The notes under the pieces are model-generated. The model did no database searches and was not told the DNA's origin. It saw only the letters and a list, made by a program, of their open reading frames with translations. A stretch of 64,000 nt of DNA, taken from assembly GCA_964195995.1 (NCBI GenBank), contig CAXMQS010000036.1, positions 100,961 to 164,960 of the forward strand. Reading direction: 5' to 3'. The translations under genes were made by a program, and so were the position numbers. How positions within the stretch are numbered: position 1 is the stretch's first letter; each line of letters begins with the position of its first letter. This stretch comes from an uncultured Acidimicrobiia bacterium (GTDB lineage: Bacteria > Actinomycetota > Acidimicrobiia > Spongiisociales > JAOTWH01). This document shows positions 27,424 to 54,957 of this stretch, in pieces.

Positions 27424-27495
27424 GGGCGCTTAGCTCAGCGGGAGAGCGCTTCCCTGACGCGGAAGAGGTCACAGGTTCGATCCCTGTAGCGCCCA
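27424..27495 (+). tRNA. tRNA-Val (anticodon GAC)
   Basis: Acceptor GGGCGCT/AGCGCCC, anticodon arm CTTCC-CTGACGC-GGAAG, T arm ACAGG-TTCGATC-CCTGT. The integrase gene starts 29 nt downstream. Confidence 0.95.
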
Positions 27496-27523
27496 CCGGA
27501 AAAGCCTTGCGCTGTAAGGGCTC

Positions 27524-29905: not shown

Positions 29906-30119
29906 CCCGAACTCTCCAAAGAGGTGCCGCACGGTCTTCTCGCGCACACCGCTCACTATCGACCTGCTCACCGCTGAAGCATCTCGCGAGATCCGCACCA
30001 TGGTGCTGGAAGGCTGGGCCGTTACCGACGCTGCTTCGGCCTGGCACGACTGGTTGGTGGGAGTTATCGGCCTTTCAGCGGAGCGGGCCTCCGTGGAGAT
30101 CATCGGAGGCTCCGCATGA
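29895..30119 (+). CDS. hypothetical small protein (translationally coupled between the excisionase-like gene and PrimPol)
   Basis: GAGGAG RBS before ATG 29895. The 5' end overlaps the upstream stop, and the stop overlaps the PrimPol ATG (ATGA). Confidence 0.5.
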   Translation: MRANPNSPKRCRTVFSRTPLTIDLLTAEASREIRTMVLEGWAVTDAASAWHDWLVGVIGLSAERASVEIIGGSA

Positions 30120-30910: not shown

Positions 30911-32225
30911 GGTGGACATCGACGCGGTTGTCGCCGCTGCAGAACCTGTGACTACCGGTGAACTCCGGGATTTCGCTGATGTCAACGCGCGGCACAACGA
31001 TGCCAGAAGTTCGAGTGTCAGCAGCGCATCGGCTCCGAAGCCCGCTTTGATGGCTGAGGCAACAGGTCCGCCAACGTTGCCCATCGAGGTCTACTACGGA
31101 CCCATCGGGCGATACGTCGAGATCATGCGGCCCACAACGGAGGCACCGCCAGAGTTCCACTTCGGAGCCTTCCTAACCAGCTTGTCAATCCTGTTCGGCA
31201 CCTGCTACCTCGAAGTTGGCGGGCGACGGCTATATCCGACGCTGTTCAGCATCCTCACTGGAAGCACCGGTATTACCCACAAGACCACCGTGGCGAATCA
31301 GGTGGTGACCTTCCTTCGTCTCGTCGCTCCCGACCTGATCATTCTTCCCGGCTCAGGGAGTAGGGAGGGCCTGGTGAAGAGCCTCCCCGACGAAGGCTCT
31401 CCGGTGTTCTGGCGGGCACCCGAGTTCACCCAGCAGTTGCGCAAGGCCGCCAACAGCGGCACGGGCAATCTGGTGGAGTTCTGGCTGGAGATCTACGACA
31501 GGCCGTCTTCCATCGAGCACCGGCTGGCCAAGGAGACCATCATCAAGCACAACCCCTGCGTGGCGATGCTGTCCGACGGCACCGAGTCCTACCTGACCGA
31601 GGTCTTTTCGGTGGCAGCCATCGGGAACGGACTGCTGAATCGTCTATGCATCTGGATGGGACAGCCAGGTGGTCCGATCCCGTTCCCTCCCGCTCCCGAC
31701 ACGGTCGAGCTGGATCGGCTGGTCGAGGAAGTGCGGCTGGCGGCGAAGAAGGCTGAGGGCCTGCCGGTGACCGCATCGGAGGAGGCCCTTGAAGCCTGGA
31801 GCGACCTGTACCACGCCGAGGTCTACCCGATGCAGCAGAGGCCAGGTGGGGAGGCATACGCGCGGCTGTCTGACATGACGTGGAAGGTGGCGACCATATT
31901 CACGCTCGCTGATCAGCGGTCCGTCGTCGAGAAGGACGACCTCCTCTCCGGATGGACGGTCGCCAAGTACCTCGTCGAGTGCTCTTCGAGAATCGCCGGA
32001 CAGATTGGGGCCTCGGAGCAGGCACAGCTATGTGAGGCGGTGGCGACGGCTGTTGAGAAGCACGGCCCGATTCCCAGCGCGGGCTACCTACCAAGGCACA
32101 TCAGCCCACGATGGCGGTCGAAGCTCGATGACTTCGGCGGGGCAAAGCGGGTGTTGGACCGGCTGGTGCGCGATGAGCGAATCGACTTCGCGGAGGGGCG
32201 CGGTTTCTTCGGCATCGGGACGTAA
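30897..32225 (+). CDS. DUF3987-like protein (primase-associated helicase-like partner)
   Basis: Large ORF coupled to PrimPol. The pattern YYGPIGRYVEIMRPTTEAPPEFHFGAFLTSLSILFG resembles DUF3987 proteins that follow PrimPol genes. Start set to GTG 30897 (alternative 30912); the track start 30813 lies inside PrimPol. Confidence 0.6.
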   Translation: MRWREVDIDAVVAAAEPVTTGELRDFADVNARHNDARSSSVSSASAPKPALMAEATGPPTLPIEVYYGPIGRYVEIMRPTTEAPPEFHFGAFLTSLSILFGTCYLEVGGRRLYPTLFSILTGSTGITHKTTVANQVVTFLRLVAPDLIILPGSGSREGLVKSLPDEGSPVFWRAPEFTQQLRKAANSGTGNLVEFWLEIYDRPSSIEHRLAKETIIKHNPCVAMLSDGTESYLTEVFSVAAIGNGLLNRLCIWMGQPGGPIPFPPAPDTVELDRLVEEVRLAAKKAEGLPVTASEEALEAWSDLYHAEVYPMQQRPGGEAYARLSDMTWKVATIFTLADQRSVVEKDDLLSGWTVAKYLVECSSRIAGQIGASEQAQLCEAVATAVEKHGPIPSAGYLPRHISPRWRSKLDDFGGAKRVLDRLVRDERIDFAEGRGFFGIGT

Positions 32226-32236: not shown

Positions 32237-32380
32237 TGTGACAATGTGACGTGTGACAGACCCCGCACACGCCCAAACCGTCCTCTTCCCATCACATAGT
32301 CACAACTCTCTCTCACTCTCTCTCTTTCCCTTATGGAAAGGGGGAATATGCGTGTGACGGGCGTCGTCACAAACTGTCAC
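32237..32380. repeat. iteron-like TGTGAC/GTCACA repeats, CT-rich tract and short hairpins (candidate replication origin of the element)
   Basis: TGTGAC at 32237, 32245, 32252 and 32353. GTCAC(A) at 32299, 32366 and 32376. CT tract 32306-32330. Hairpin CTTTCC-cttat-GGAAAG. Confidence 0.4.
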
Positions 32381-32391
32381 AACAGTCGAAA

Positions 32392-32443
32392 TTCGCGCAA
32401 TCCGCGAGGGGTATCCCCCCTATACCCATAGGGGGCCGGGGCC
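32392..32443 (+). repeat. double-hairpin repeat B, copy 1
   Basis: TTCGCGCAATCCGCGA...CCCCTATACCCATAGGGGGCCGGGGCC, containing hairpins TCGCG-caatc-CGCGA and CCCCTAT-accc-ATAGGGG. About 80 percent identical to copy 2. Confidence 0.7.
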
Positions 32444-32645
32444 TTACCATCATGGGGTTAACTTCCTGTAACTAAGGGGCCCGGAGGGGTAATCAGGGAC
32501 CAGCGATTCACGCGAAACACCGCGTGAGGGGTACCAAATGCTGTGGGTACCGTCACGCCTCTCGACACCCTTTGCACCCCCGACTAAACGCCTCTTCCAA
32601 TACCGACCCAAGGGCTATACCGCACCTGTACTCGACAGAAGTACT

Positions 32646-32679
32646 GCACACCAGGGCGTGACCTCGCCTGAGGTCGAAC
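32646..32679 (+). repeat. R repeat, partial copy R0 (right half only)
   Basis: GCACACCAGGGCGTGACCTCGCCTGAGGTCGAAC. It lacks the CTCTAGGAACATTCG left part and lies about 100 nt upstream of the cyclase-STAND gene. Confidence 0.8.
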
Positions 32680-32776
32680 CGACGGTGGCATTTGGGATCG
32701 TGAAGAAGAAACAGTCTGCGACGAGTCATGGCCAGGCGTAGTCTGATGAGACGCTACGAACCAACAGCCTCATTCA

Positions 32777-35398
32777 ATGAAACTGCCGACTGGAACCGTC
32801 TCCTTCCTCTTTACTGACGTTGAAGGCTCGACCCGACTGCTGCACCAGTTAGGTGAGCGGTATTCGAATGCCCTCGAAACCCATTCCAGAATCATCGAGT
32901 CTCGTGTTGGCGCGGCTGATGGCGTTGTGGTGAACACCGAAGGTGACGCCTTCTTCTGTGCGTTTTCAAATGCTGCCGATGCAGTCGGAGCTGCGGTGGG
33001 CATACAGCGGGACTTCGCTGATTACGCCTGGCCGCCTGATGGACAGTTTCGTGTTCGGATGGGCATCCACACCGGTGACGGAACCTTGGGGGGTCGGGAT
33101 TACGTCGGAGTGGACGTGCATCGAGCGGCTCGTATTTCGGCTGCTGGTTACGGCGGGCAGATCCTTGTGTCGGCTGAGACGTTTGCGCTAACAGAGCGGA
33201 GGCTTCCCGGCGGTGTGGCGATGCGCGATCTGGGCGAGCATCACCTGAAGGACCTCCCACGTGCCGAGCATGTGTTTCAGGTGGTTGTTTCCGAGTTGCC
33301 CTCCGACTTCCCAGCTCTGAAGTCAGATTCCAGAAGATCTCACAACCTTTCAGCCACGCTGAATACCTTTGTTGGTCGGTCTGATGAACTAGTTGCGATC
33401 AGCGAGCGACTTGGTGCGTCCCGACTGATCACGCTGGTGGGGCCTGGTGGCACGGGGAAGACCCGGTTGGCCGTCGAGGTTGGTTTCAACGTACTTGACA
33501 TCCTCACGGATGGGGTGTGGATGGTCGAGTTGGCTTCGGTATCCGAGTCTGGTGGTGTCCAGCGTTCGCTCGCTGCGGCTCTTCGACTGCGGGAACAACT
33601 CGACATCGCTTTGGTGGACACGATCTCTGATCATCTGGCTCAGAAGTCCGCGCTCGTCATCCTCGACAATTGCGAGCACCTACTTTCGGCGTGTGCCGAA
33701 CTTGCTGACCATCTCCTGCGGTTGTGTCCCGAAGTCCGCATGTTGGCGACGAGCCGCCAGGCGCTTGGTGTGTCGGGCGAAAGAGTCCATCAGGTCGCAG
33801 GGCTTACTGTTCCTACTGCTGAGATGTCTGGCGAAGAGCTTATGGCATCCGAGGCCGTGGAACTGCTCGTTGATCGCGTGACAGAGCGTAAGAGAGATTT
33901 CTTACTCACGGTCGAGAATTCAGAAGCAGTGGCCCAGATTTGTCGTCGCCTTGATGGCATTCCACTGGCAATAGAACTCGCAGCGGCCAGGGTCAACGTC
34001 TTGGGAGTCGAGCAGATCGCTGGGCGGCTTGATGATCGGTTCCGATTGCTGACTGGTGGAACCGCTGTCGATCTTCCCCACCACCAAACGTTGCGGCTGG
34101 CGATGGATTGGAGCTATGACCTACTTGTCGCCGAGGAAGCGGCTTTGTTTCGGTGGTTGTCGGTCTTTGCGGGAGGATGCTCACTGGAAGCTGTCGAGTC
34201 GGTGTGCTCCACCGATTCTGTGCCGGAGTCTGCCGTCCTCGACCTGTTGCAGGGCCTCATCGAGAAATCGCTAGTGGTCGTCGATGATCATCAAAATCCG
34301 GTGCGATATCGCATGCTTGAAACCGTCCGCGCGTATGCCGACGACAAGTTGGCCTCATCCGGCGAACGGGAAGCGGCGCTGGTTAGTCATGGGCGTTATT
34401 ACCTGCGTGTGGCCGAAGAGGCTGAACCCGCTCTGCAAGGTTCAGTTGACAGCTCGTCACAAGCAGAGGTTCTCGACCGGCTGGAGCTTGATCATGGAAA
34501 CTTCCGTGCTGCGATGGAGGGGCTCCTGCATACCGAGCAGGACCTTGTTGGCAGGCTGGCTGGATCGCTGTGGCGCTATTGGGAAGTTCGCGGCCACCTC
34601 AACGAGGGAAGCGAATGGATGAAAGCAATTCTCGAAGCCGGACGAGAACTAGCACCAAACGTCCGTGCCAAAGCTCTCGCCGGCGCAGGAAAGCTCGCCT
34701 GGCGTCGGGGTGCCTTCGAGGAAGCAGAACCACTATTCCGCGACAGTCTTGAACTGTGGCGCACAGTGGATGACCGGGCCGGAGAAGCTAACGCCCTTCA
34801 TGGTCTAGCCAGAGCAGCACTCAACCTAGGCCACCACGAGGAGGCGCAATCGTCGGGAGAACAAAGCCTGGCGATCCAAACCGAACTCGAAAACCCGCAA
34901 GGCATCGCCACCGCGATCAATACCCTCGGAGAGGTCGCTCGGCTCAAAGGCGATCTCCACCAAGCCCAAGATAGGTATATGGACAGCCTCCACATCTATG
35001 AGGACATTGGGGATACAGCCGCCTTCATCACCGTTAAGCACAACCTTGGATATACCGCCCTAGGTCAAGGCGACACCGAACGGGCCGAGGCTAGATTCCT
35101 CGAAGCGATGACAATCGCACGAGACCTGCAAGACCATCTCGGCATCTTCTCGATGTTCGGAGGGTTGGCCGCTGTAGCGATTACGCAAGGAGACGCCGTT
35201 CGAGCTGCAACATTGTTTGGTGCTTCTAGTGCTGTCGCGACAGATGGATACGCGGGGGATCGAGTGGACCAAATCGAGGTCCAACGTAATCTGGCAGCAA
35301 CGCGAGCGGTTCTCGAACCCGAAACTTTCAACCGAGCATGGCAGGACGGCGAAGAAATGCCACGCGAAGCAGCTATTGCCTATGCGCTAGGAACATGA
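32777..35398 (+). CDS. class III adenylate/guanylate cyclase fused to a STAND (NB-ARC/AAA-type) NTPase and TPR repeats
   Basis: Cyclase domain (VSFLFTDVEGST, NTEGDAFFCAF, RMGIHTGD). Walker A LVGPGGTGKTRLA and Walker B ALVILDNCEHLL. C-terminal TPR-like repeats (ANALHGLARAALNLGHHEEA, ATAINTLGEVARLKGD). Visibly more A/T-ending codons than the housekeeping block. Confidence 0.85.
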   Translation: MKLPTGTVSFLFTDVEGSTRLLHQLGERYSNALETHSRIIESRVGAADGVVVNTEGDAFFCAFSNAADAVGAAVGIQRDFADYAWPPDGQFRVRMGIHTGDGTLGGRDYVGVDVHRAARISAAGYGGQILVSAETFALTERRLPGGVAMRDLGEHHLKDLPRAEHVFQVVVSELPSDFPALKSDSRRSHNLSATLNTFVGRSDELVAISERLGASRLITLVGPGGTGKTRLAVEVGFNVLDILTDGVWMVELASVSESGGVQRSLAAALRLREQLDIALVDTISDHLAQKSALVILDNCEHLLSACAELADHLLRLCPEVRMLATSRQALGVSGERVHQVAGLTVPTAEMSGEELMASEAVELLVDRVTERKRDFLLTVENSEAVAQICRRLDGIPLAIELAAARVNVLGVEQIAGRLDDRFRLLTGGTAVDLPHHQTLRLAMDWSYDLLVAEEAALFRWLSVFAGGCSLEAVESVCSTDSVPESAVLDLLQGLIEKSLVVVDDHQNPVRYRMLETVRAYADDKLASSGEREAALVSHGRYYLRVAEEAEPALQGSVDSSSQAEVLDRLELDHGNFRAAMEGLLHTEQDLVGRLAGSLWRYWEVRGHLNEGSEWMKAILEAGRELAPNVRAKALAGAGKLAWRRGAFEEAEPLFRDSLELWRTVDDRAGEANALHGLARAALNLGHHEEAQSSGEQSLAIQTELENPQGIATAINTLGEVARLKGDLHQAQDRYMDSLHIYEDIGDTAAFITVKHNLGYTALGQGDTERAEARFLEAMTIARDLQDHLGIFSMFGGLAAVAITQGDAVRAATLFGASSAVATDGYAGDRVDQIEVQRNLAATRAVLEPETFNRAWQDGEEMPREAAIAYALGT

Positions 35399-35533
35399 GC
35401 TCGCCAGGTTTGAGATTCCCATCACAAGCCTCGATCCGGATCTAGGAACATCGGTGGTCTCTCCCGAATCCCCGCTACCGCTACACGCAACCAAGAACAG
35501 ACCCGCAATTCCCAGTGCGACTAAGAATCGCAT
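35387..35533 (-). CDS. hypothetical small lipoprotein (48 aa)
   Basis: GGGAGA RBS before ATG 35533. MRFLVALGIAGLFLVACSG is a lipoprotein signal with a lipobox. Convergent 12-nt overlap with the cyclase gene end. Confidence 0.4.
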   Translation of the reverse strand: MRFLVALGIAGLFLVACSGSGDSGETTDVPRSGSRLVMGISNLASSCS

Positions 35534-35570
35534 CTTGTCTCCCGTTTCGTGGAGGGGGACCCTCAGAGGG

Positions 35571-35656
35571 CCTGTTCCCCCGCGGGTCCCTTCGCGTCCT
35601 CTAGGAACATTCGTGCACACTGGCACACCAGGGCGTGACCTCGCCCGAGGTCGAAC
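35571..35656 (+). repeat. R repeat copy R1 (GC-hairpin left module plus full 53-nt right module)
   Basis: CCTGTTCCCCCGCGGGTCCCTTCGCG + CCTCTAGGAACATTCGTGCACACTGGCACACCAGGGCGTGACCTCGCCCGAGG + TCGAAC. Confidence 0.9.
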
Positions 35657-35720
35657 GACTAGCTGGTGTCCGACGATTCCTACTCGCTCTTCAGTGTGCA
35701 GACGGCTACCTATGGATGAT

Positions 35721-35770
35721 TTCGCGCAATCCGCGACGGCGGCCCCCTATCCCCATAGGGGGCCGAGGCC
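35721..35770 (+). repeat. double-hairpin repeat B, copy 2
   Basis: TTCGCGCAATCCGCGACGGCGGCCCCCTATCCCCATAGGGGGCCGAGGCC, with the same two hairpins as copy 1 at 32392. Confidence 0.7.
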
Positions 35771-35959
35771 TCGCTAGCGGCCCTCAGAGGTGCTTGGACA
35801 GCCGCCCTCACGCAAGGGCGGCGAAAACCAGCATGATGGGTTGTCTCTCCTGCGGCTCTCGGATGCTTCCCCTGCTCCGGGGATACCCCTCTCCCGAGGC
35901 GATGCGGGCAGCGTTCGATCAGGGGTTGATAGCTAGGCGTGCGATCCTCCGCCAGATGA

Positions 35960-36238
35960 TCAGTACTGGACGGACTCAGCTTCTTCGTACACCTCAACGC
36001 GAGGCTCGCCTGTCACACCCGCCTTGTCCATGTTCGCCTTCAGGTCAGGGTTCTCGATCATCTCGTTGGCTGCATCAATGGACTCGAACCCGACGACGAC
36101 GGCCACCGTGTTCGGATCGCTCACCAACCGGTTGACGCGAGCGAACGATGCGCCGAATGTTCCGGGGTTTCGCGCGTCGTAGACAGACTTCCACGCCTCA
36201 TAATCGGCAACCGGGTGCTGGATAGCAACGACAATCAT
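35960..36238 (-). CDS. hypothetical small protein (92 aa, possibly a ferredoxin-like/ABM-like fold)
   Basis: AAGGGAG RBS before ATG 36238. MIVVAIQHPVADYEAWKSVYD... has no recognised signature. Confidence 0.55.
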   Translation of the reverse strand: MIVVAIQHPVADYEAWKSVYDARNPGTFGASFARVNRLVSDPNTVAVVVGFESIDAANEMIENPDLKANMDKAGVTGEPRVEVYEEAESVQY

Positions 36239-36289
36239 TCGTACTCCCTTAACTCTGCCCGACCGTGGTGCCGGACCTCTCTTCAACCT

Positions 36290-36436
36290 TACCAGTTGAT
36301 GATGGAAGGAGTGCCGGTGCCGATCATCCAGAAGCAACTAGGACATGCGAGCTTGGCTACGACGCAGCGGTACCTGGAGCATCTTGCCCCTGCGGATGTG
36401 ATTGAGGCAATGCAGCGACGGGAGTGGTCGGTCTAG
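36290..36436 (+). pseudogene. C-terminal fragment of a tyrosine recombinase/integrase
   Basis: The translation ...MMEGVPVPIIQKQLGHASLATTQRYLEHLAPADV matches only the last ~45 aa (LGHxxxxTTxxYxH, catalytic Tyr region). No upstream catalytic boxes are present. The stop TAG lies within an inverted copy of the GC-hairpin module. Confidence 0.7.
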
Positions 36437-36463
36437 ACGCGAAGGGACCTCCGCCGAAGCAGG
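36433..36463 (-). repeat. inverted copy of the GC-hairpin (left) module of the R repeat
   Basis: The reverse complement reads CCTGCTTCGGCGGAGGTCCCTTCGCGTCTAG; compare R6 CCTGCTCCGGCGGGGGTCCCTTCGCGTCTAG. Confidence 0.75.
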
Positions 36464-36515
36464 AGTCCCAGGCGACCGAACGGCTCGTCGGACGCCTAGA
36501 TCGCTGGCTGTCCTA

Positions 36516-36815
36516 CTAGGGGCCGGGCAGCGGTCGGAAATTGTCGATGAAGACCTCCTTGCTCCGTGAGTAAGCCGGTGCCAGTAGGCAGACAAAAGAG
36601 TCCCCGTTGTCGTCAAACTCCGCGCCCTCCGGGAAGCTGGTTACCGATTGCAGTGCCCACACGATCGGGTTATGCAGCGGCTCCCCGGGAAGTGGGACAG
36701 GATCCGAGGCTGGACCGGGACACCCGCCCAGCGGTGCTCCATTGGCCGATGCCGGTAAAGGCACCATCACAAATACCAACAAGACGACAAGCGCCAACAA
36801 CATGGGCTTTCGCAT
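36516..36815 (-). CDS. hypothetical secreted small protein (99 aa)
   Basis: GGGAGGAGG RBS before ATG 36815. Signal peptide MRKPMLLALVVLLVFVMVPLPASA. Confidence 0.6.
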   Translation of the reverse strand: MRKPMLLALVVLLVFVMVPLPASANGAPLGGCPGPASDPVPLPGEPLHNPIVWALQSVTSFPEGAEFDDNGDSFVCLLAPAYSRSKEVFIDNFRPLPGP

Positions 36816-36952
36816 AAATCCTCCTCCCGCCTTGGATGCCAACCCTGGGGGAGGGGTCACTGGGCCGCTAGAGGCTTAGGGCCGAACCTTGTCGGCTCTT
36901 GGTGACCCGCGAAGGTGCAGAAATCTCCACCGATCTGACCGGAACCGGCCCG

Positions 36953-37004
36953 CTTTAGGAACATTCGTCAACACTGGCGCACCAGGGCGTGACCTCGCCT
37001 GAGG
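36953..37004 (+). repeat. R repeat copy R2
   Basis: CTTTAGGAACATTCGTCAACACTGGCGCACCAGGGCGTGACCTCGCCTGAGG. Confidence 0.9.
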
Positions 37005-37032
37005 CCGCGGTGTCAGAGTCCGCGATCTCGGC

Positions 37033-37962
37033 TCAACCGTTGTGGACGATCTCCACGACGGGTTGCATCGCTTCCACCGTGGCGGCCGTCCTCGGAAAGA
37101 CGTCGCACCGGACTTCGTTGAACCCGAGTTTGCCGAGTGAGAGGATGAACTCCGCGATCTGTTCGGAAGTCCCCGTCACCGGCTGTTTCATGTCCAGACC
37201 TTCAGCCGCACCGTTGCTGCTGAACCCTTCGGGAACCACGGTGTACAGGTCGAAGGTCCGTCCCACAGTGGCAGGGTCACGGTCCTCGGTCTGACACGCC
37301 CGCTCTAGCACCTCAATGATCGGTCCGATCCGCTCACCGATCTGTTCAAGAGTCTCGTCCCAGCCCCACCAGTTCCACGAGTCGGCGTACTTAGCGACGA
37401 GTTGCAGCATCTTCGGGCCTCCTGCCGCAATGTTGATAGGCGGACCCTGCTGACGAGGACCCCGCAGCACCAACTCGGCTTGACGGGCCGTGTAGAACTC
37501 ACCCTCGAAGTCAATGGCACCATCCCGGAGCAGGCCATGAATGATCTGGATTGCTTCGGCAAACCGTGAGTACCGCTTATCTGTTGGGAAACCGAACGCC
37601 TCGTAATCGGAATCTTCCGTGTTCCCTGCTCCGATTCCGAGTACGAACCGACCTCCCGAGATTTCGTCGATCGTGTCCGCGATCTTTGCCGTCATCGCGG
37701 GAGAGCGGTATGGAGAGTTGACCACCGACTGTCCCAGGCTGATTCGGTTGGTCGTCGCAGCGACCGCCGCCGCGATCGACACCGATTCCCAGACCCCATC
37801 GGTAGCACTCTCTGCCCGATACAGCAGGGCGTCCTCGAACACGAACATGTCGAATCCCGCCGCCTCTGCGGTGGCCGCCTGTTCGCTGATCGATTGCCAA
37901 GTAGGCGGCGGTGGGTCGCCGCCGGGTCGGCCATGAAGCTGCGTGATTAGCCCGACTCTCAT
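37033..37962 (-). CDS. LLM-class (luciferase-like) F420-dependent oxidoreductase
   Basis: MRVGLITQLHG..., FDMFVFEDALLY, GRFVLGIGAGNTEDSDYEAFGFP and a length of 309 aa fit the luciferase-like monooxygenase family. Confidence 0.8.
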   Translation of the reverse strand: MRVGLITQLHGRPGGDPPPPTWQSISEQAATAEAAGFDMFVFEDALLYRAESATDGVWESVSIAAAVAATTNRISLGQSVVNSPYRSPAMTAKIADTIDEISGGRFVLGIGAGNTEDSDYEAFGFPTDKRYSRFAEAIQIIHGLLRDGAIDFEGEFYTARQAELVLRGPRQQGPPINIAAGGPKMLQLVAKYADSWNWWGWDETLEQIGERIGPIIEVLERACQTEDRDPATVGRTFDLYTVVPEGFSSNGAAEGLDMKQPVTGTSEQIAEFILSLGKLGFNEVRCDVFPRTAATVEAMQPVVEIVHNG

Positions 37963-38021
37963 GGGTGGAACCTAGCCCGCCCGCACATGGAGGACTTCTT
38001 GTGCTTGGTTTCGTGAGCAGT

Positions 38022-38073
38022 CCTCTAGAAACATTCGTGAACCCTGGCACACCAGGGTGTGACCTCACCTGAG
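38022..38073 (+). repeat. R repeat copy R3
   Basis: CCTCTAGAAACATTCGTGAACCCTGGCACACCAGGGTGTGACCTCACCTGAG. Carries paired (compensatory) substitutions relative to the other copies. Confidence 0.9.
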
Positions 38074-38158
38074 ACCCCCACTCCTTAGGCGGCTGTCCCT
38101 CGCGTCGCTTGCTGGGGGCTAGGCGCTAGGCGCTGCCTGTTGTGAACTGTCGGCAGAG

Positions 38159-38764
38159 CTAGCGCCGATTCCCTGCACCTTCGCCGATGGCATCGAGGAC
38201 CTCGGGATCGTCGATGAGCCCGCCGCCACGAACTGTTGCCCCAATCGTGAGGGCGGCCGACACCAGCACGATGTTCTTGAGGATGTACTGGCCTTCGAGT
38301 GTCGGCACGAATAGGTCTGACCAGGTCACCTCTGGGAACAGGAACAGCGGTGTCACGGTTCCGAGCATCTGACCGACCAGCAACAGCAGCGTGAGGCGCA
38401 TGAACCTGCCTGCAACGAGTCCGATCCCGATCGCCGTTTCGAGGGTTGCCAGCGAGACACGTGCGAGACCTTCAGTTATCAACCCAAAGGAGAGCCGGTC
38501 GATCGTCTCTGTGGCGAGTTGGTCGGCGGGACTCAGACCCGGCCAAAACTTGAGCACTCCGAACCAGATGAAGATGCCTCCAATGCTGATCCGCAAGAGG
38601 GTCAGTCCGTGCTCCGCAAGCCAGCGGGTTACTCGGCGGTCGATCGCCTGGAACGCTGTTCGATCCACGTGGGCAACGTTATTGCTGCCGGCGAGGTAGC
38701 AGAAGTGGTTCTCGGAAATGGGCAACAGTTCCAGCGTTCTTGCACACGGCGAACAGATCACCAA
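38159..38764 (-). CDS. DoxX-family membrane protein
   Basis: Four TM segments with LLRISIGGIFIWFGVLKFWPG, typical of DoxX/YkgB-like proteins. Start uncertain. Confidence 0.65.
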   Translation of the reverse strand: MVICSPCARTLELLPISENHFCYLAGSNNVAHVDRTAFQAIDRRVTRWLAEHGLTLLRISIGGIFIWFGVLKFWPGLSPADQLATETIDRLSFGLITEGLARVSLATLETAIGIGLVAGRFMRLTLLLLVGQMLGTVTPLFLFPEVTWSDLFVPTLEGQYILKNIVLVSAALTIGATVRGGGLIDDPEVLDAIGEGAGNRR

Positions 38765-38834
38765 TTCAGGAGCAAGCGCGAGAGTCCGACAATGTGCTCC
38801 AGAACTCCACTCGGCGATCTACTCCAACTCATGG

Positions 38835-38887
38835 TCCTCTAGGAACATTCGTTGACGCTGGCACACCAGGGCGTGACCTCGCCTGAG
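38835..38887 (+). repeat. R repeat copy R4
   Basis: CCTCTAGGAACATTCGTTGACGCTGGCACACCAGGGCGTGACCTCGCCTGAGG. Confidence 0.9.
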
Positions 38888-39057
38888 GGAGAGCCGGGCT
38901 TGGGAGCACCCGGCACAGTGAGCTACTCATCGAGCGCGGTGCGCGTGAGCCCGTATCTCAAGTGAATCGATTCACAGGTGAATCGAGGTCTTTTGACCCT
39001 ATTCGTCCAAGGCGCCTAATGATGGTCTGCACCCACCGGCTGGGAGGAGACAAGCAC

Positions 39058-39717
39058 ATGGGCGCTCAGGTGTTGCGATCACTGCGCCTTGTGACCTCAC
39101 TCCTCGTCGTTGTGGTTCTAGTTGCGGCCTGCGGTGACGCCACCGAGGTGACCACGACGACGGCTTCGCCTGGCGCTCCATCAGAGACGGAGGCCCCACA
39201 GGCTACGGATGCAGCCCCAACGACTAAGGAGCCGTCAGTGGCCGCCGCAAGCATTGCAGAAGCCGGACTGCCGACTGAGTGGTTGTTAGGGAGCCCGCAA
39301 CAAGCGGAATCGGATTCACAAACCAGCGGGGATGATGAGGGTTTCGTTTTGGACATCAGCTTCCGATTCAGAAGTGACCAATATTCCGCAGAGGGCAAAG
39401 TGACTCACGAGCTAGAGCTGGTCCAAGGGGCCGTGGTGGAATGCAATGGCAGGACGTACGACGAAGAATTCCTGTGGTCGGCGATATCTCCGGGTACGGG
39501 CGAATTGGATTTCGGAGACTCGGGTTCGGTCACGATCGAATTTGAGGCGGTGGCAGTTGCTTCGATCGACGCCGCGGCGTGGCCCAAGCAGTGCTGGGAA
39601 TGGAACGGCACTTACACAGGTGCCTCGGGGAACCTGGCTACCGCCACAGGAACGTTCACCGCGGTTATTCCCGGACAACATTCAGGCGAGCCTTACGTAA
39701 TCACCTTCGATTCCTAA
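39058..39717 (+). CDS. hypothetical lipoprotein (219 aa)
   Basis: GGAGGAG RBS before ATG 39058. Signal/lipobox LLVVVVLVAACGD. No recognised domain. Confidence 0.65.
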   Translation: MGAQVLRSLRLVTSLLVVVVLVAACGDATEVTTTTASPGAPSETEAPQATDAAPTTKEPSVAAASIAEAGLPTEWLLGSPQQAESDSQTSGDDEGFVLDISFRFRSDQYSAEGKVTHELELVQGAVVECNGRTYDEEFLWSAISPGTGELDFGDSGSVTIEFEAVAVASIDAAAWPKQCWEWNGTYTGASGNLATATGTFTAVIPGQHSGEPYVITFDS

Positions 39718-39728
39718 GCCGCAGCGCT

Positions 39729-39782
39729 CCTCTCTAGGAATATTCGTCAACACTGGCACACCGGGGCGTGACCTGCCTGAGG
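39729..39782 (+). repeat. R repeat copy R5
   Basis: CCTCTCTAGGAATATTCGTCAACACTGGCACACCGGGGCGTGACCTGCCTGAGG. Starts 12 nt after the upstream stop codon. Confidence 0.9.
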
Positions 39783-40060
39783 TCTCGACGGACCTCGACG
39801 GTTGGAGGAGAAGACAGGCAGCTGGTGTAGGCGTCACCGTGGGCACTGTGAACGGCGTTGACCGCCGAGAACCGACGGGCCTGTTAGGGGAATCCGCCTC
39901 TTGCTCCTGTTGACCGAGCCAATCATCCTCGGGGCAATGGCTTGGCTCCACCACCCGTGCCGGACGAGGAGGTGACGCAAAGGGGCAAATGGGGGAGACT
40001 TCGCCAGATATTGAACACGCTGGCGTCGAAACACGGCGCCCAAACGCATCGAGGGAGAAC

Positions 40061-40372
40061 ATGATGCATGCGATGTTGATCACTTTCGAGTCGACGGCTG
40101 ATCTGGATGATCTGAAAGGTCCCTTCACTGATTACGCGAATGCGCTACAAGGGGTGGTGGGTCTGGTCTGCAAGACCTGGTTCCGGGACGGATCAACACT
40201 GGGTGGCTTCCACATCTTCACCAGCCGAGAAGACGCCGACAGCTACGTGAGCAGCGACCTGGTGGCAGGTCTCACCTCCAATGAGGCCTTCTCGGAGTTC
40301 CAGATCCGCCACTTCGACGTGCTCGACGAGTTGAGCGCCATGACCGGCAGCCCCGAGAAGGCGCTGACCTAG
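40061..40372 (+). CDS. YdhR-like small monooxygenase-fold protein
   Basis: GAGGGAG RBS before ATG 40061. The 103-aa pattern LVCKTWFRDGSTLGGFHIFTSREDADSYV...HFDVLDELS parallels E. coli YdhR (WKVWTE...GGIYLFTDEKSALAYL...FDVNEPLS). Confidence 0.6.
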   Translation: MMHAMLITFESTADLDDLKGPFTDYANALQGVVGLVCKTWFRDGSTLGGFHIFTSREDADSYVSSDLVAGLTSNEAFSEFQIRHFDVLDELSAMTGSPEKALT

Positions 40373-40378
40373 ACCCGA

Positions 40379-40463
40379 CCTGCTCCGGCGGGGGTCCCTT
40401 CGCGTCTAGTCCTCTAGGAACATTCGTGAACACTGGCCCACCAGGGCGTGACCTCGCCTGAGG
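40379..40463 (+). repeat. R repeat copy R6 (GC-hairpin left module plus full right module)
   Basis: CCTGCTCCGGCGGGGGTCCCTTCGCG tctagt CCTCTAGGAACATTCGTGAACACTGGCCCACCAGGGCGTGACCTCGCCTGAGG. Starts 7 nt after the upstream stop. Confidence 0.9.
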
Positions 40464-40759
40464 TTGAAGTTTGGCTGGCCGATGACGATGCCTCCTCAAC
40501 TCACTCGATCAGCAACTCGATTACTTGGATCTCTTGTCTACAAGACGCTGCTTCGAGGGTCTATTAGGTAAAGGCACGAAGGAAGACCGCGATCGACAGC
40601 GTCGAATATGTGCAGTCACATTTGTCGGTTGCTGTGCGTCTCTTGGAGTGAGGACAGAGAGGCGAGTCGTGGTCGAAGATGTCTGGCGAACCGCGAGGAG
40701 ATGGACCGCTCGGTTGCCGACTCCTGCTGTTACGGCTTGTAACCAAGGAGGAGATTTCT

Positions 40760-41266
40760 ATGCGCAAGCTCACGTTGGTGTTCGTCGTCGTCTTGCTGGC
40801 GGCGATGATGCTCCCGGCGGCACCCGCAGGTGCTCGCCCGGCGAGCTGGAACCCAGTGACATTCGACGTTACCGACTGTGATACGAACATTTGTACCGAA
40901 GGGGGGGTCCCTGATAGCCCCTTCAGGTTCGAGGTCCTGGCCGATCTTGCAGAGGTCACGGGGCTTTCGCCGGAAACGATTGCCGCCTGTGCAGAAGCAA
41001 CCTCAGGCACCCGGATCGGGTGGGAGGACAAATCGAACAAGAAGAAGATCCAGCTATGGATCCGGTTCCCTTGCGTGCCTGAGCCTAACCCTGACGACCT
41101 TGACCCCAATTGGACCTCGTTCAATTTGTTCATACGAGGACACCAGGGCAGTGTCGAGGTCGACTGGAATCTCTACGGCGGCAATGGAGACCTCTATGGC
41201 CTGCGCGGCGGGGGCAGCGGCAACGTGGTCGGTGGCGTCTATAGCCTCGACGGAAGACTGAAATAG
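40760..41266 (+). CDS. hypothetical secreted protein (168 aa)
   Basis: AGGAGG RBS before ATG 40760. Signal peptide MRKLTLVFVVVLLAAMMLPAAPAGA. Confidence 0.65.
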   Translation: MRKLTLVFVVVLLAAMMLPAAPAGARPASWNPVTFDVTDCDTNICTEGGVPDSPFRFEVLADLAEVTGLSPETIAACAEATSGTRIGWEDKSNKKKIQLWIRFPCVPEPNPDDLDPNWTSFNLFIRGHQGSVEVDWNLYGGNGDLYGLRGGGSGNVVGGVYSLDGRLK

Positions 41267-41290
41267 GAGGTCCTGTCCAGTCTTGGGGCC

Positions 41291-41336
41291 CCTGCTCCGG
41301 CGGGGGTCCCTTCGCGCACCCCGCACAACTAGAACG
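41291..41336 (+). repeat. R repeat terminal partial copy R8 (left module plus CTAGAAC stub only)
   Basis: CCTGCTCCGGCGGGGGTCCCTTCGCG caccccgcacaa CTAGAAC. The ACTGGCACACCAGGGCGTGACC right part is missing, and the array ends here. Confidence 0.7.
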
Positions 41337-41436
41337 ACAAGACCGCCTCGCCCGCCTCGAGGCTCGGGCCTCTAGACCAATTGGCGCCAGGCATCCACGA
41401 CGAGCGGTTCCTGAGCATCGGCGAGCCCTGCGCTAT

Positions 41437-41571
41437 TCAGTGGTGTCCAGGGAAGTCGGCCAATTTGGCGTTGAGCCAGGAGATGAATGGGGCGACGAGG
41501 GCCTCCGCAGAGGCTGTTTCGTCGGCGAGAACCTTGATGCTGATGCCGGTGTCGAAGCGGTACTCGACCAT
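41437..41571 (-). CDS. possible small ORF (44 aa)
   Basis: Strong GGGAGGAG RBS 5 nt before ATG 41571. MVEYRFDTGISIKVLADETASAEALVAPFISWLNAKLADFPGHH. Below the track length cut-off and matches no motif. Confidence 0.25.
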   Translation of the reverse strand: MVEYRFDTGISIKVLADETASAEALVAPFISWLNAKLADFPGHH

Positions 41572-41937
41572 TGTCTCTCCTCCCGTTACTTCGGTCCTAG
41601 TTCCCAGCCGATCACGGCACCTCTCCTATGGACCTGGTGTACGAGATTCTCAACGGGCGCTGCGTACCGATCGCTCAGCCCGACCCGTCGCCGCGCGAGA
41701 ACCTCAAACGCCTCGACCATGGGGCCAGTGGGTAGCCGGGATAGTCGTACCAATCTGGGTGGCTGCCGGTGTCGGGAGCCTTCGGTTTGGGCTAGCGCCA
41801 GGTCGAACCAACACCAACTGAGGTGTGTGAACGGGACCCCTGGGCGTAGAGAGCATTGATTCTTGGCGGTGAGATGCTCCGGACAGATTCGTCCCTAGGA
41901 ACGGCCCGGGACCAGGAGGGACAGGCCGGGACGTACC

Positions 41938-41959
41938 CCGTCAGACTGAAGATCCGATG
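41938..41959 (+). repeat. tRNA-Phe-like anticodon-arm fragment, copy 1 (left direct repeat of the SIR2 gene)
   Basis: CCGTCAGACTGAAGATCCGATG contains TCAGA-CTGAAGA-TCCGA (anticodon GAA loop). Matches 20 of 22 nt with 43315-43336. Confidence 0.35.
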
Positions 41960-42054
41960 CCAGCCAAATGCGTTGGCGCACATCGGACGACTTGTCCCGC
42001 AGTATTGCTGCACCACCATCGAGCTACAGTCGTTGAGGCCGCGACCTGTGGGCG

Positions 42055-43326
42055 ATGCAAGGAATCCACTCGGTGACCAGTCAACCCCCTTCCGACGGAA
42101 CAACCTACCTACTCGGTGCAGGCTTTAACCGGGTACTCGTCGATCATGAGGGTTTTAGGCCTCCGCTGGATGTCGATTTCCTCACGTTGGCGCTCACACA
42201 TCCGCAATGGGGAGGTATGCCGGGGTACCGCCCAGAGTTCCTCGACGTCTACTCAGCGCTGTTCAAGTACATCCTCTCCTACTGGCACCTCACGCCCGAC
42301 GAGCTGACTCAGGAGAACATTCCAGAGCTTCGCCAGCGTCGCTTTGGGCTTGAGAGCTGCCTCACCCTGCTCGAGCTCCAAATGGCCGATGAAGGTCGCA
42401 GCGGACTGTTTGACCTGGGGGAACTGAGAGAGGTGTGGAATAGCGCAGTCCATCTCGTCACAAAGTCCCTCAATCTCTTCAATTGGTTCCCTTTTCTGAC
42501 CGGTACAGACGTGTTCTTCGCATTCGCCAAGCGGGTGATGGACGAACGTGCGACCGTCATAACGCTCAACTACGACACACTGCTGGAGCAAGCACTGCAA
42601 CGTGTGTCGGGGTGGAACGAGGACTTTGAGTCCTCTGACATAGGTGCTGATGGGACCACGGACCTTTGGGGCAAAGGACGCGTGCAGTCAGATGCGCTGC
42701 TCGACAGGCAGCTGGTGACGGGCAGATTTCGGTGGCGTCCGGAGCTGGCGTATGGGTTCCAGTTCGATCGTGTGGAACTTGAGGCACCTTCCGGAACCTG
42801 GGTCGACGGTGCGACCTTCTACGGGCGTCCCGAGAATCACCCGTACGCCGAGCCAATTCTCAAGCTTCACGGATCTCTCAACTGGATACGCCCCAATCCA
42901 GAGTTTCCGTCTGTGGAAACTTTCCAGGAGCAAACGAATGGAAACCTCACGATCAAGGTCAGCGCCATAGATCTAGACCCGATCCTTCCTAGGGAGTTGC
43001 TTCAGCTGAAGACACCGGTCCCGGCCAAGAGCTTTCGGGAAGCGCCATTCAATGATCTATACGAGGCTGCGCGGGAGTCGTTGCGCGTCACCAACAGGTT
43101 GGTTGTAGTCGGCTATTCCTTTCCTGCGACAGATTTCCACATCAATCGACTACTAATGGAAGCGTTCGCTGAAAGGCAGCCCGATGAGGTGATCGTCGTG
43201 AACACCGATGAGAGCGTTGGTGACTTCGTGGCAGCTCTATTGGACCGGCGCCTGACCTCCTTCAAGGGTCTCGCAGAGTTCCTAGACGCAACATCTACAC
43301 CAACGACACCGCCGCCGTCAGACTGA
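42055..43326 (+). CDS. SIR2_2-family (SIR2-like NADase superfamily) protein
   Basis: YLLGAGFNRV (GAGxS-like), VITLNYDTLLEQAL, ILKLHGSLNW (catalytic His) and LVVVGYSFPATDFHINRLL (GYSxxD). A/T-richer codon choice than the housekeeping genes. Confidence 0.8.
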   Translation: MQGIHSVTSQPPSDGTTYLLGAGFNRVLVDHEGFRPPLDVDFLTLALTHPQWGGMPGYRPEFLDVYSALFKYILSYWHLTPDELTQENIPELRQRRFGLESCLTLLELQMADEGRSGLFDLGELREVWNSAVHLVTKSLNLFNWFPFLTGTDVFFAFAKRVMDERATVITLNYDTLLEQALQRVSGWNEDFESSDIGADGTTDLWGKGRVQSDALLDRQLVTGRFRWRPELAYGFQFDRVELEAPSGTWVDGATFYGRPENHPYAEPILKLHGSLNWIRPNPEFPSVETFQEQTNGNLTIKVSAIDLDPILPRELLQLKTPVPAKSFREAPFNDLYEAARESLRVTNRLVVVGYSFPATDFHINRLLMEAFAERQPDEVIVVNTDESVGDFVAALLDRRLTSFKGLAEFLDATSTPTTPPPSD

Positions 43327-43345
43327 AGAACCGAAGGTCGAGGGT
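43315..43345 (+). repeat. tRNA-like fragment, copy 2 (anticodon arm through the 5' T stem), overlapping the SIR2 stop codon
   Basis: CCGTCAGACTGAAGAACCGAAGGTCGAGGGT. Shares 20/22 nt with copy 1 and the 15-mer CCGAAGGTCGAGGGT with copy 3. Confidence 0.45.
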
Positions 43346-43784
43346 GGGATGTGAGCCTCTTCATGAGGTGCAAAGAGTGACATGTTGCAACCAGGTCGAA
43401 CTCGCGAGTCGGGCTGAACCTCCTATATCCCGTACCTCGGACCTGACGGGGAGCCTTCTTATCCAGACCTCCAGTCAATGCTTGGGTCAGGCCGCAGACA
43501 GGCCGCGAGGCACGGCGAATCAACGCAAACCATCTCTGGTTGCTGGCGAAACCGCCGATCTGCCCATGATCCCTGAACCTTCTCAGACCTCCTGATTCGC
43601 CCTCACGCGGCAGAGGTCGCTTGGTTCGATCCACAGCGTCAGTCGAGACTGCTACCCAACTGCTACCGAACGCCCCATAACCAGCCGTCACAGGACGACA
43701 CAGCCTGAACGCCATCGCCTAGGAACCCAGACAGACCGGGCCTAGCCGACACCCGATGACACTGGCTGGACCCCGAGCACCGAA

Positions 43785-43829
43785 CTTATAATCCGAAGGT
43801 CGAGGGTTCGATCCCCTCCCGGCCCACCA
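43785..43829 (+). pseudogene. 3' half of a tRNA gene (anticodon loop to CCA), with no 5' half
   Basis: CTTATAA-TCCGA-AGGTC-GAGGG-TTCGATC-CCCTC-CCGGCCC-A-CCA forms a canonical variable loop, T arm, acceptor 3' strand and CCA. The upstream 40 nt have no D arm and no matching acceptor strand. Confidence 0.7.
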
Positions 43830-44104
43830 AGGAAGCCCTGGTCAGCGCGGACGTCTCCTGGGTTTGGGCCAGTGGTCGTCGTCTACGGACCCGGCTTTTG
43901 GGCTTGCCTTCACCCGCCCCTTCCATATGCGCTATGCTTGTCGTGATATATCAGACGCCCATCTACTCGAGTAGCCGCCGGCAGGAGGCCTCTATGCCGA
44001 GTTTCCTCGGGCTCATCGAATCTTGGATCGAGCCCCAGATCTCCGAGATGCTTGCCGCACGATTGCGGCTTGCAGGAGCGCTCGGCTGCGGTTGAGATGA
44101 CGCC

Positions 44105-45064
44105 ATGATCGCCCGTTCTCCTTCGGCAGAGGGCACCAGCGCAGGGTTTGCCCTCGTCGCCTGGAGTCGCGGTGCGGGGTGCCTCGAGCTGGCAACCCTG
44201 CTCGGTGGTCGGCCTCCAATTCAAGTCAAGGGAGACCTGCGACGCAGTTGTATCAAGGACCGGATCGAACTACTCGTCACCCGGAGGCTGAGTAGCTTCG
44301 ACTTGGTCCCGATCGTCATCCCGCACCACCTCGAACTCGAGCGAGTGGAATCCGTCACAGCTGCGGTCGGCGACGGACCCCACTCGGAACTCGCCGCGGC
44401 CGTGGGTTCGGGTATCGGCGCGGCGTTGGGCGTGCCCGCCGAGCTTGCCACCGTATACCGCACGCCTGAGGAAATCACGGTCGCGCTTGCTCGCCTCGAG
44501 CGACTCGCCGAAGTCCACCCAGACATCGGTCGGCGTGCCGTCGACGAGCCCACGGCGAAACGCCTGGTCGAATCCCTCGCCCCAGGCACCCTTCTGGTCG
44601 TGGGTGCTCCGGGAGGATCGTGGCTTCAACGCCAGCTCTTCGGTACCGGGCATCGCCTCCTCGTGACCGCGCCGAGCGGTGCCATCGTGGTTCGCTCCGC
44701 GCCCCGGCGCTGCTACCAGGACGCCGCCGACCCAGCCGGCATTGCCATCGGTGGCCACCTCACAGTGAAGGACGCTCTTGCGCTCATGAGATACCCCGTT
44801 GTACCGGTCTGCGAAGGCGGGCGCCTTGTCGGGACCGCACGCATCGAGACCCTCGTCGAAAAGGAACCGACATTGCTGGTCGCCGACGTGATGGAACCCC
44901 CTGTTGCCGTCGCCGATGTCGAACCCGTGGCGGCGGCAGCTGACCTCGATGAGTTCTTCGGCAACTCCCCGATCCCCGTCGTTGACAGTGACGGATACCT
45001 CATCGGTACGATCTTCGACCCACCACCCCACAGCCTGGTTGACTTCGAGATCTCCTCTTCGTGA
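44105..45064 (+). CDS. CBS-pair domain protein with an N-terminal USP-like region
   Basis: The C-terminal ~120 aa show two CBS motifs (LTVKDALALMRYPVVPVCEGGRLVGTA; ADVEPVAAAADLDEFFGNSPIPVVDSDGYLIGTI). Start uncertain. Confidence 0.6.
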   Translation: MIARSPSAEGTSAGFALVAWSRGAGCLELATLLGGRPPIQVKGDLRRSCIKDRIELLVTRRLSSFDLVPIVIPHHLELERVESVTAAVGDGPHSELAAAVGSGIGAALGVPAELATVYRTPEEITVALARLERLAEVHPDIGRRAVDEPTAKRLVESLAPGTLLVVGAPGGSWLQRQLFGTGHRLLVTAPSGAIVVRSAPRRCYQDAADPAGIAIGGHLTVKDALALMRYPVVPVCEGGRLVGTARIETLVEKEPTLLVADVMEPPVAVADVEPVAAAADLDEFFGNSPIPVVDSDGYLIGTIFDPPPHSLVDFEISSS

Positions 45065-54808: not shown

Positions 54809-54859
54809 CCGCCTTCACACGACGGAGGTCACTGGTTTGATCCCAGTGGCGCCCCACCA
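54809..54859 (+). pseudogene. 3' fragment of a tRNA-Val(CAC)-like gene (anticodon arm to CCA)
   Basis: CCGCC-TTCACAC-GACGG-AGGTC-ACTGG-TTTGATC-CCAGT-GGCGCCC(C)-ACCA. The T stem differs from the intact tRNA-Val(GAC) by paired changes. No D arm or 5' acceptor lies upstream. Confidence 0.6.
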
Positions 54860-54957
54860 AAACAGCCTCTGCGAACATTGCGGATTCGCTTTGCACCTGC
54901 AGTCTCGCGAGTATTGCTGAGACTGGAACCCCCATGAGATAGAGCGCATGGTCGAGA

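Follow-up and report, generated by a model that had tools for sequence, protein, structure and literature searches.

A stand-alone SIR2 gene among relics of two tRNA species at the distal end of a genomic island in an uncultured Acidimicrobiia bacterium

The segment described here (positions 41938–43829) belongs to a 64,000-nucleotide (nt) stretch of DNA from an uncultured Acidimicrobiia bacterium (contig CAXMQS010000036.1), which was analysed in full and is referred to below as the window. It carries a gene of the SIR2_2 family and three short same-strand sequences, copies 1, 2, and 3, that an earlier sequence-only reading had taken for parts of a tRNA gene. This segment is the distal end of an integrated genomic island of ~16.3 kb (about 27.5–43.83 kb) in the Acidimicrobiia chromosome. 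The distal end is a cluster of attachment site (att) relics from two tRNA species, and SIR2 is the last cargo gene. Taken as a whole, the locus is best explained by such an island together with a small SIR2 cassette inserted near its end, and we give this combined explanation a probability of roughly 0.55. The cassette part by itself is plausible but unproven. In addition, the view that tRNA-targeted site-specific integration shaped the locus, already put forward from the sequence, is supported: copy 3 ends close to the junction of foreign and core DNA, relics of tRNA-Val lie nearby, and an integrase gene sits at the intact tRNA-Val gene.

The left edge of the foreign DNA is an intact tRNA-Val(GAC) gene (27424–27497, + strand; found by ARAGORN; Rfam, 68 bits), the last of a Gly-Cys-Val tRNA cluster. 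A tyrosine integrase gene (27524–28657, − strand) lies 27 nt from it; its product matches Pfam Phage_integrase (61 bits), has a SAM-like N-terminal domain, and matches the PHROG family phrog_1 (248 bits). The replication module consists of Prim-Pol (30116–30910, + strand; Pfam, 158 bits) and a DUF3987 helicase-like protein (30813–32225, + strand; Pfam, 43 bits), both with matches to PHROG primase/helicase families. Based on composition and Pfam, a low-GC cargo region extends over 32300–43829 and encodes a cyclase-NB-ARC-TPR protein, a luciferase-like oxidoreductase, DoxX, a ydhR-like protein, and SIR2. The GC content of the cargo is 0.57–0.61, compared with 0.64–0.68 in core DNA, and the GC content at third codon positions (GC3) is 0.58–0.74, compared with 0.76–0.84 in core genes.

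Both boundaries of the island were located by comparison with relatives. On the left, two relatives (L002 and L003) share the dut-tRNA cluster with the window, and homology ends at or ~25 nt past the 3′ end of tRNA-Val; these dUTPase relatives have nothing in common with the window downstream of tRNA-Val. On the right, the flank is a conserved Acidimicrobiia core gene for a CBS-domain protein (44105–45064, + strand), which has 127 homologues at 38–72% identity and whose coding sequence shows 68–71% nucleotide identity with relatives L102–L106. Homologues of the dUTPase and of the CBS protein place the source organism in the Acidimicrobiia. The block upstream of this gene aligns with relatives from ~43905 onward, which puts the foreign/core junction at most 76 nt from where copy 3 ends. 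The DNA upstream of the CBS gene in L102–L106 is unrelated, and no empty site is present there; a scan of genome contigs with the CBS protein also yielded no confirmed case. The conserved upstream block (~43905–43965) has the form CGC.AT..TTGTCGTG.TATAT, lies ~150–190 nt before the CBS start, and occurs in three Acidimicrobiia lineages (including L104 and L102). It is probably a promoter or operator.

The two best matches in the window to the 3′ half of tRNA-Val are both displaced from the intact gene. One is a decayed tRNA-Val-like 3′ fragment at 43600–43632 (+ strand; CCCTCACGCGGCAGAGGTCGCTTGGTTCGATCC), which starts in the anticodon loop (CAC) and reaches the T loop, matches 27452–27483, and lies between copies 2 and 3, 140 nt before copy 3. 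It is second-best window-wide (score 21, against a shuffle maximum of 17) and is a candidate for the old attR of the island that carries the integrase at tRNA-Val. The other, at 54812–54873 (+ strand), has the anticodon CAC and a CCA end, matches at 48/62 positions, and scores 28 against a shuffle maximum of 15, and its similarity to tRNA-Val extends 14 nt beyond the tRNA itself. This fragment may be a pseudogene of tRNA-Val(CAC), or else the attR of an island that was older and larger. Furthermore, the ends of the island are mismatched, with Val on the left and Lys on the right, and the two core flanks are not neighbours in relatives. This discrepancy implies that more than one element accreted, was rearranged, or both.

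Features of these kinds are established. Displaced tRNA fragments mark the ends of islands (PMC4383910), and partial tRNAs can be scattered through islands by serial integrations (bioRxiv 10.1101/2020.12.28.424599). Similar to tRNA-integrated islands in the Islander definition, the present island has an integrase beside an intact tRNA, foreign composition, and a tRNA 3′ fragment at the far junction. In contrast to them, the junction fragment is from tRNA-Lys and the intact gene is tRNA-Val, while the Val fragment is decayed and lies 140 nt inside. The island also resembles the tycheposon-type islands of Prochlorococcus, with an integrase and primase/helicase genes at a tRNA, distal cargo and defence genes, scattered partial tRNAs, and degenerate remnants. 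However, the host here belongs to the Acidimicrobiia and two tRNA species are involved, and the likeness described here is one of layout.

The Lys end is defined by copy 3 (43775–43829, + strand; 55 nt), which corresponds to positions 22–76 of tRNA-Lys(UUU), the 3′ two-thirds of the molecule, and stands at the island/core junction. It carries the T arm GAGGG-TTCGATC-CCCTC, the acceptor strand CCGGCCC, the discriminator base A, and CCA; tRNA positions 1–21 are missing. The Rfam tRNA model gives a partial match at 43763–43818 (model positions 8–63; 23.2 bits, with a gathering score of 29). An intact tRNA-Lys(ttt) gene is found on L102, a related Acidimicrobiia contig that also bears an orthologue of the CBS gene of the right flank. 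Window positions 43775–43827 are identical to this gene at 50/53 positions, with 39/39 over tRNA positions 36–74 (the third base of the anticodon up to where the alignment stops). Three positions differ: 27 and 29, both on the 5′ side of the anticodon stem, and 35, where the anticodon TTT is changed to TAT. Full identity in the 3′ part with weaker similarity before it is the pattern expected of an attR. Based on this alignment, copy 3 is a genuine tRNA piece, namely a displaced 3′ fragment of tRNA-Lys(UUU). The match to L102 replaces the Phe(GAA) or CAU/UAU type that had been proposed, and it shows that a tRNA of this lineage resembles the fragments far better than random sequence does.

Other assignments of copy 3 were considered. 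A 20-mer (TCCGAAGGTCGAGGGTTCGA) is shared with a phage tRNA-Met, and the tRNA-Met/Ile(CAU) assignment that it suggested is superseded by the 50/53 match to tRNA-Lys(UUU). ARAGORN finds only the tRNAs Gly, Cys, and Val(GAC) in the window, at 27216–27497, and copy 3 matches none of them beyond the universal GGTTCGATCCC. The exact 30-mer that spans the T arm and acceptor strand of copy 3 has 0 matches in 185,579 species genomes and 0 in viral contigs.

Copy 2 (43315–43350, + strand) contains a further piece of the same tRNA. Its right half (43331–43350) matches tRNA-Lys positions 40–59 at 18/20 positions and diverges after that. Within it, 43331–43345 is identical to 43793–43807 of copy 3 (15/15), a match that extends to 23/29, and the estimated probability of a copy 3 15-mer recurring within 2 kb is about 2e-4. 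By these alignments, the right half of copy 2 is a second, decayed tRNA-Lys piece. The left part of copy 2 has a different relationship: 43315–43334 repeats copy 1 (41938–41959, + strand; CCGTCAGACTGAAGATCCGATG), which lies 96 nt upstream of the SIR2 start. Copy 1 and 43315–43336 of copy 2 form a direct repeat with 20/22 identical positions at a spacing of 1377 nt. The repeat encloses the SIR2 open reading frame (ORF) alone, with the SIR2 stop codon inside copy 2, and no third match at up to three mismatches occurs in the 64-kb window; its 20-mer has 0 matches in viral contigs. With a left half like copy 1 and a right half like tRNA-Lys, copy 2 is a hybrid with the junction WCCGA, and this junction corresponds to the 3′ strand of the anticodon stem of tRNA-Lys (tRNA positions 39–43).

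Aligned in this way, the three sites represent two distinct repeats joined within copy 2, rather than nested copies of one tRNA. The sequence-only reading had described three nested copies of one tRNA 3′ half, produced by serial integration, with SIR2 between the first two. Its coordinates and its 20/22 and 15-nt identities are correct, and a tRNA origin holds for copy 3 and for the right half of copy 2; it is not demonstrated for copy 1, which has no tRNA-model match and shares only ATCCGA with copy 3. In its favour, the three copies share one strand, copy 2 overlaps with each of the other two, and copy 1 placed in register keeps TC.GACT....ATCCGA of the tRNA-Lys anticodon arm (12/17). However, copy 1 agrees with copy 3 at only 13/22 positions, with ATCCGA as the single contiguous stretch. 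Moreover, serial integration predicts that every attR reaches the 3′ end of the tRNA, not that the pieces become progressively longer. In addition, no intact tRNA-Lys lies upstream in the window, the left end of the island holds tRNA-Val, and the tRNA type that had been named was wrong. In the proposed Phe-type anticodon arm, pairing is broken by an A-C mismatch in copy 1 and at two places in copy 2. With the tRNA model also silent at copies 1 and 2, we consider nested copies improbable. The idea could be revived by the attP of a tRNA-Lys-targeting element of this lineage, if that attP had CCGTCAGACTGAAGA immediately 5′ of the tRNA-like core.

The significance of the copy 1/copy 2 repeat was evaluated by comparing the 530 nt upstream with the 560 nt downstream of the SIR2 ORF. 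The repeat scores 17 (+1/−2 scoring), while the maximum in 200 shuffles of the flanks is 13. A sliding control at this spacing across the entire window ranks it first among all repeats, one unrelated 8-copy family excepted. By itself, this repeat is suggestive and not conclusive. Three other origins of copy 1 and of the repeat were rejected. A profile hidden Markov model (HMM) of the family, run against the six-frame translation, finds one SIR2 gene only, and copy 1 is not the remnant of the 3′ end of another. An nhmmer profile of the 8-copy intergenic repeat gives no match at copy 1, and terminal inverted repeats that would mark a transposon or a miniature inverted-repeat transposable element are lacking. 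A promoter and terminator scan around SIR2 shows nothing that exceeds the shuffled background.

Several observations weigh against the cassette, and with it against the combined explanation. The repeat is short, and its estimated chance probability, ~1e-3 for the SIR2 gene, is 0.03–0.1 window-wide; in the sliding control, core DNA twice yields gene-spaced repeats that score 15–16. Neither copy 1 nor copy 2 is recognized by the tRNA covariance model, even when 200–650 nt are searched at E ≤ 10. The right arm of copy 1 does not resemble a tRNA, and no tRNA derivation of copy 1 can be detected; in register with tRNA-Lys, copy 1 agrees at 7/14 positions upstream of TCCGA and the left part of copy 2 at 7/15. 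In addition, the loop of the repeat is CTGAAGA, compared with CTTTTAA in tRNA-Lys, and this difference would leave the repeat unable to recombine with a true tRNA-Lys if the overlap region is the anticodon loop. Neither the 5′ half of tRNA-Lys nor an intact copy is present within the 64-kb window, no empty site or circular junction turned up, albeit without a search of the large sequence collections for them, the GC content of SIR2 is no different from that of the neighbouring cargo, and the Val-like relic at 43600–43632 matches at 27/33 positions only. Among 20 loci of SIR2 homologues, 15 have no significant flanking repeat (p > 0.03), and tRNA-like fragments are absent beside the 12 homologue loci examined for them.

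Much of this evidence suits a simpler history, in which the copy 1/copy 2 repeat is a chance resemblance and SIR2 is just the final gene in the cargo of a larger tRNA-Val island or of a decayed tRNA-Lys island. The right half of copy 2 and copy 3 would then be the only real att relics, left by two successive tRNA-Lys integrations. The near-equal scores in core DNA, the absence of a tRNA signal in copy 1, the missing repeats at most homologue loci, and the agreement in GC between SIR2 and its neighbours all speak for it. However, the repeat hugs the ORF, from 96 nt upstream to the stop codon, and copy 2 joins the tRNA-Lys piece exactly at a strand of the anticodon stem. The local probability of about 1e-3 and the same geometry at the homologues in L007 and L019 also count against coincidence. 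We regard chance as somewhat unlikely.

The combined island and cassette explanation leads to a specific sequence of events. A SIR2-only unit of ~1.38 kb without an integrase, similar to a cis-mobilizable element (CIME) and with an att-O of about 20 nt, would have recombined into a pre-existing att relic of the tRNA-Lys type, helped by an integrase provided in trans. The left junction would then be copy 1 and the right junction (P-O-B′) copy 2, and copy 3 would be the older attR of a different element. The predicted empty site, with the left flank of copy 1 joined to the right flank of copy 2, would read ...GGGACGTACC + CCGTCAGACTGAAGAWCCGA + AGGTCGAGGGTGGGATG..., and the predicted circle junction ...ACGACACCGCCG + CCGTCAGACTGAAGAWCCGA + TGCCAGCCAAATGCG.... 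The hybrid structure of copy 2 could also be a deletion scar, formed when SIR2 was flanked by two full copy 1 sequences and a later deletion ran from the right one to a downstream tRNA-Lys relic through CCGA microhomology. The shared junction of 4–5 nt in the hybrid copy 2 and the several decayed tRNA pieces within the surrounding 500 nt fit such a scar. Nevertheless, it requires an extra event and an extra tRNA-Lys copy, and nothing sets it apart from direct integration into a relic. We rate it as improbable.

Elements of the proposed kind have precedents. CIMEs and accretion into an attR have been described, and integration at a resident attR is the accepted route to tandems (PMC5704250). 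Like CIMEs and the tandems formed by integrative and conjugative elements and integrative and mobilizable elements, the SIR2 unit lacks an integrase, is bounded by att-like direct repeats, and adjoins other elements. In contrast, it would consist of a single 1.27-kb gene with a repeat of 20/22 nt only.

The surroundings of the SIR2 homologues were also compared. One locus is L007 (4899–8610), in which three integrase-less units are separated by repeats of ~70–90 nt. On the tRNA strand, the order is tRNA-Met(−), a unit with a 191-aa ORF and Ymh, junction A, a unit with RelE and its antitoxin, junction B, the SIR2 unit (1325 nt), junction C, and ArsP. The tRNA-Met 3′ end and ~40 nt of its downstream flank recur in junctions A and B, and a left arm of ~45 nt is common to junctions A, B, and C. 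This locus is a textbook accretion array of integrase-less units, or CIMEs (PMC5704250). In L019, an exact 17-nt GC-rich repeat (TTAGGAGGGCACCACGG, ending ...GGGCACCA) occurs at 4529–4545 and 6233–6249 and flanks a SIR2 homologue in AT-rich DNA; this repeat is reminiscent of a tRNA acceptor end with CCA. The 1325-nt unit between att-like repeats in L007 and the repeat in L019 support, by analogy, a SIR2 insertion of ~1.4 kb. The minimal insertion suggested from the sequence, plausible here, has gained parallels at other loci.

Other homologue loci show related features. In L005, a tRNA-Ser(GGA) gene lies 77 nt upstream of the SIR2 homologue, and two partial copies of the 5′ part of tRNA-Ser are found upstream of that gene, at 4349 and 4489 (region 4349–4924). 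In L008 (4557–4886) and L027 (464–682), a C-terminal fragment of a tyrosine integrase directly precedes the SIR2 homologue, and this fragment is the only recurrent neighbour family among the 20 loci. No such fragment is present near the SIR2 gene of the window. Collectively, the flanking-repeat pattern is recurrent, but not universal, among the homologue loci.

The SIR2 gene (42055–43326, + strand) encodes 423 aa and matches Pfam SIR2_2 (PF13289) with 31.1 bits, above the cut-off of 24.5. PADLOC, which had been suggested as a check, recognizes the protein with SIR2 models at up to 45 bits; the 45-bit match, to Aga_SIR2, covers only residues 248–385 of the SIR2 domain. The NCBIfam model SIR2_antiphage gives 15.7, with a cut-off of 500. 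In an alignment of 32 family sequences, the motif GAGFN (residues 21–25: G21-A22-G23-N25) as well as N172, D174, and H272 are invariant or nearly so. The public gene call of 369 aa starts at 42217 and omits the conserved GAGFN NAD-binding motif, and the start at 42055 fits the family alignment. The position of GAGFN at residues 21–25 indicates that the 423-aa ORF is correct and that the 369-aa call is truncated. The only other record of this ORF is L001, a 1766-nt Logan contig that is identical to the window. The nearest homologues are 29–37% identical and metagenomic in origin, including one from an archaeal metagenome-assembled genome. Homologues are mostly 330–490 aa long.

The AlphaFold model of the protein has a mean predicted local distance difference test (pLDDT) score of 78 and a predicted TM score (pTM) of 0.84. 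All top folds in the structure search are SIR2 proteins: the best are the SIR2 subunits of SIR2-HerA complexes, followed by Avs5 and classical sirtuins. The model, the fold search, and the alignment show no extra C-terminal ligand-binding domain of the type that had been anticipated; the SIR2 fold spans the whole chain. The family alignment stops about 10 aa past the last SIR2 helix, and the last ~11 residues (TSTPTTPPPSD), which extend into copy 2, show no conservation across the family. Sensing or regulation is probably carried out by a helical insertion at about residues 40–165. The gene is foreign and stands alone, and its product is a full-length SIR2_2 protein in which the catalytic Asn, Asp, and His are intact. 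Pfam scans of the island ORFs reveal no HerA, TIR, prokaryotic Argonaute (pAgo), or STAND partner adjoining SIR2, and the neighbours of the 20 homologue loci include no conserved partner gene, in agreement with the earlier view that SIR2 stands alone.

The NADase-type SIR2 effector domain is common to DSR1/DSR2, Thoeris ThsA, SIR2-APAZ/pAgo, and the SIR2-STAND protein Avs5 (bioRxiv 10.1101/2021.12.14.472415). SIR2-HerA is the closest system in structure: PDB entries 8uae and 8wld are the best matches (Foldseek E, 2e-7 to 1e-6; TM about 0.5) and also the only PDB sequence matches, which are marginal (E about 0.005). The Asn/Asp/His positions of SIR2_2 correspond to N172, D174, and H272. However, identity is only 13–15%, and there is no HerA gene here or beside the 20 homologues. 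Unlike in Thoeris, SIR2_2 is the sole domain, without SLOG, and no TIR was found among the island ORFs scanned by Pfam. In contrast to DSR1/DSR2, the 423-aa protein lacks a large C-terminal sensor. APAZ, which characterizes SIR2-APAZ/short pAgo (SPARSA), is absent, as is PIWI from the neighbouring ORFs scanned by Pfam, and the protein differs from Avs5 SIR2-STAND in having no STAND. By analogy with DSR, ThsA, and SIR2-HerA, the SIR2 protein is most likely a single-protein NAD+-consuming abortive-infection effector.

What is moderately new here is an uncharacterised clade of stand-alone SIR2 proteins and a hint that this clade moves as a single-gene cassette flanked by att sites. With intact catalytic residues, no partner, and ~35% identity among its members, the clade is a candidate for a new single-gene NAD-depletion system. 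If the cassette explanation is true, defence genes in little-studied Actinomycetota could be exchanged as minimal integrase-less units, and such units would act as parasites of tRNA-targeting integrases, a mode of transfer intermediate between classical islands and integrons. If it is false, the locus is still a clean example of att relics from two tRNAs that record the history of an island. The analysis also indicates that short tRNA-like repeats need the tRNA of their own lineage as the comparison.

A broader possibility is that the clade, with proteins of ~390–420 aa, is a single-gene anti-phage system carried on integrase-less cassettes of 1.3–1.7 kb with tRNA-derived att sites. These would be inserted in trans by tRNA-targeting tyrosine integrases and stacked into integron-like arrays beside tRNA genes, as in L007, and the 8-copy repeat array described below may reflect the same process. 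We regard this generalization as doubtful. The superficial likeness to integron cassettes lies in single genes, seemingly without promoters, between recombination sites and in same-strand arrays, as in L007 and in the 8-copy array of the window. However, inspection by eye reveals no attC features (the palindrome RYYYAAC ... GTTRRRY) at the ends of SIR2, and the sites derive from tRNA ends. The island integrase scores 31 and 18 bits against integron-integrase models, whose cut-offs are 265 and 435.

The cargo region contains additional repeats. An element of ~60–70 nt with the core CACCRGGGYGTGACCTCGCCTGAGG occurs in eight copies, all on the + strand, at 32649, 35626, 36980, 38050, 38864, 39759, 40439, and 56416, and in six of them CCTCTAGGAACATTCGT precedes the core. 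One copy lies between each pair of cargo genes, whatever the strand of the genes, with spacings of 680–2977 nt. The element forms a small hairpin with one compensatory change; it matches no Rfam family, and none of the relatives that were retrieved contains it. These copies are not att sites of tRNA-Val, to which they have no significant similarity, and the core weakly resembles the anticodon arm of tRNA-Gly(GCC). A 9-mer that could mark a distal junction at 41141 is probably due to chance. The repeats could represent junctions between cassettes or a regulatory site in multiple copies.

A second family, CCTGCTCCGGCGGGGGTCCCTTCGCG, is found at 35571–35596, 40379–40404, and 41291–41316 (+ strand) and, inverted, at 36430–36463. 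Two of its copies are identical, and all are sited at gene ends in the cargo region; they may be terminator-like hairpins. The first cargo gene, which has the lowest GC3, encodes the cyclase-NB-ARC-TPR protein (32777–35398; 873 aa), with an adenylate/guanylate cyclase domain, an NB-ARC/AAA domain, and TPR repeats. Its role may be that of a STAND-type sensor or of a regulator like the mycobacterial cyclase-ATPase-TPR proteins. Two copies of the palindromic element CCCCCTATACCCATAGGGGG, at 32416–32444 and 35743–35771, flank this gene.

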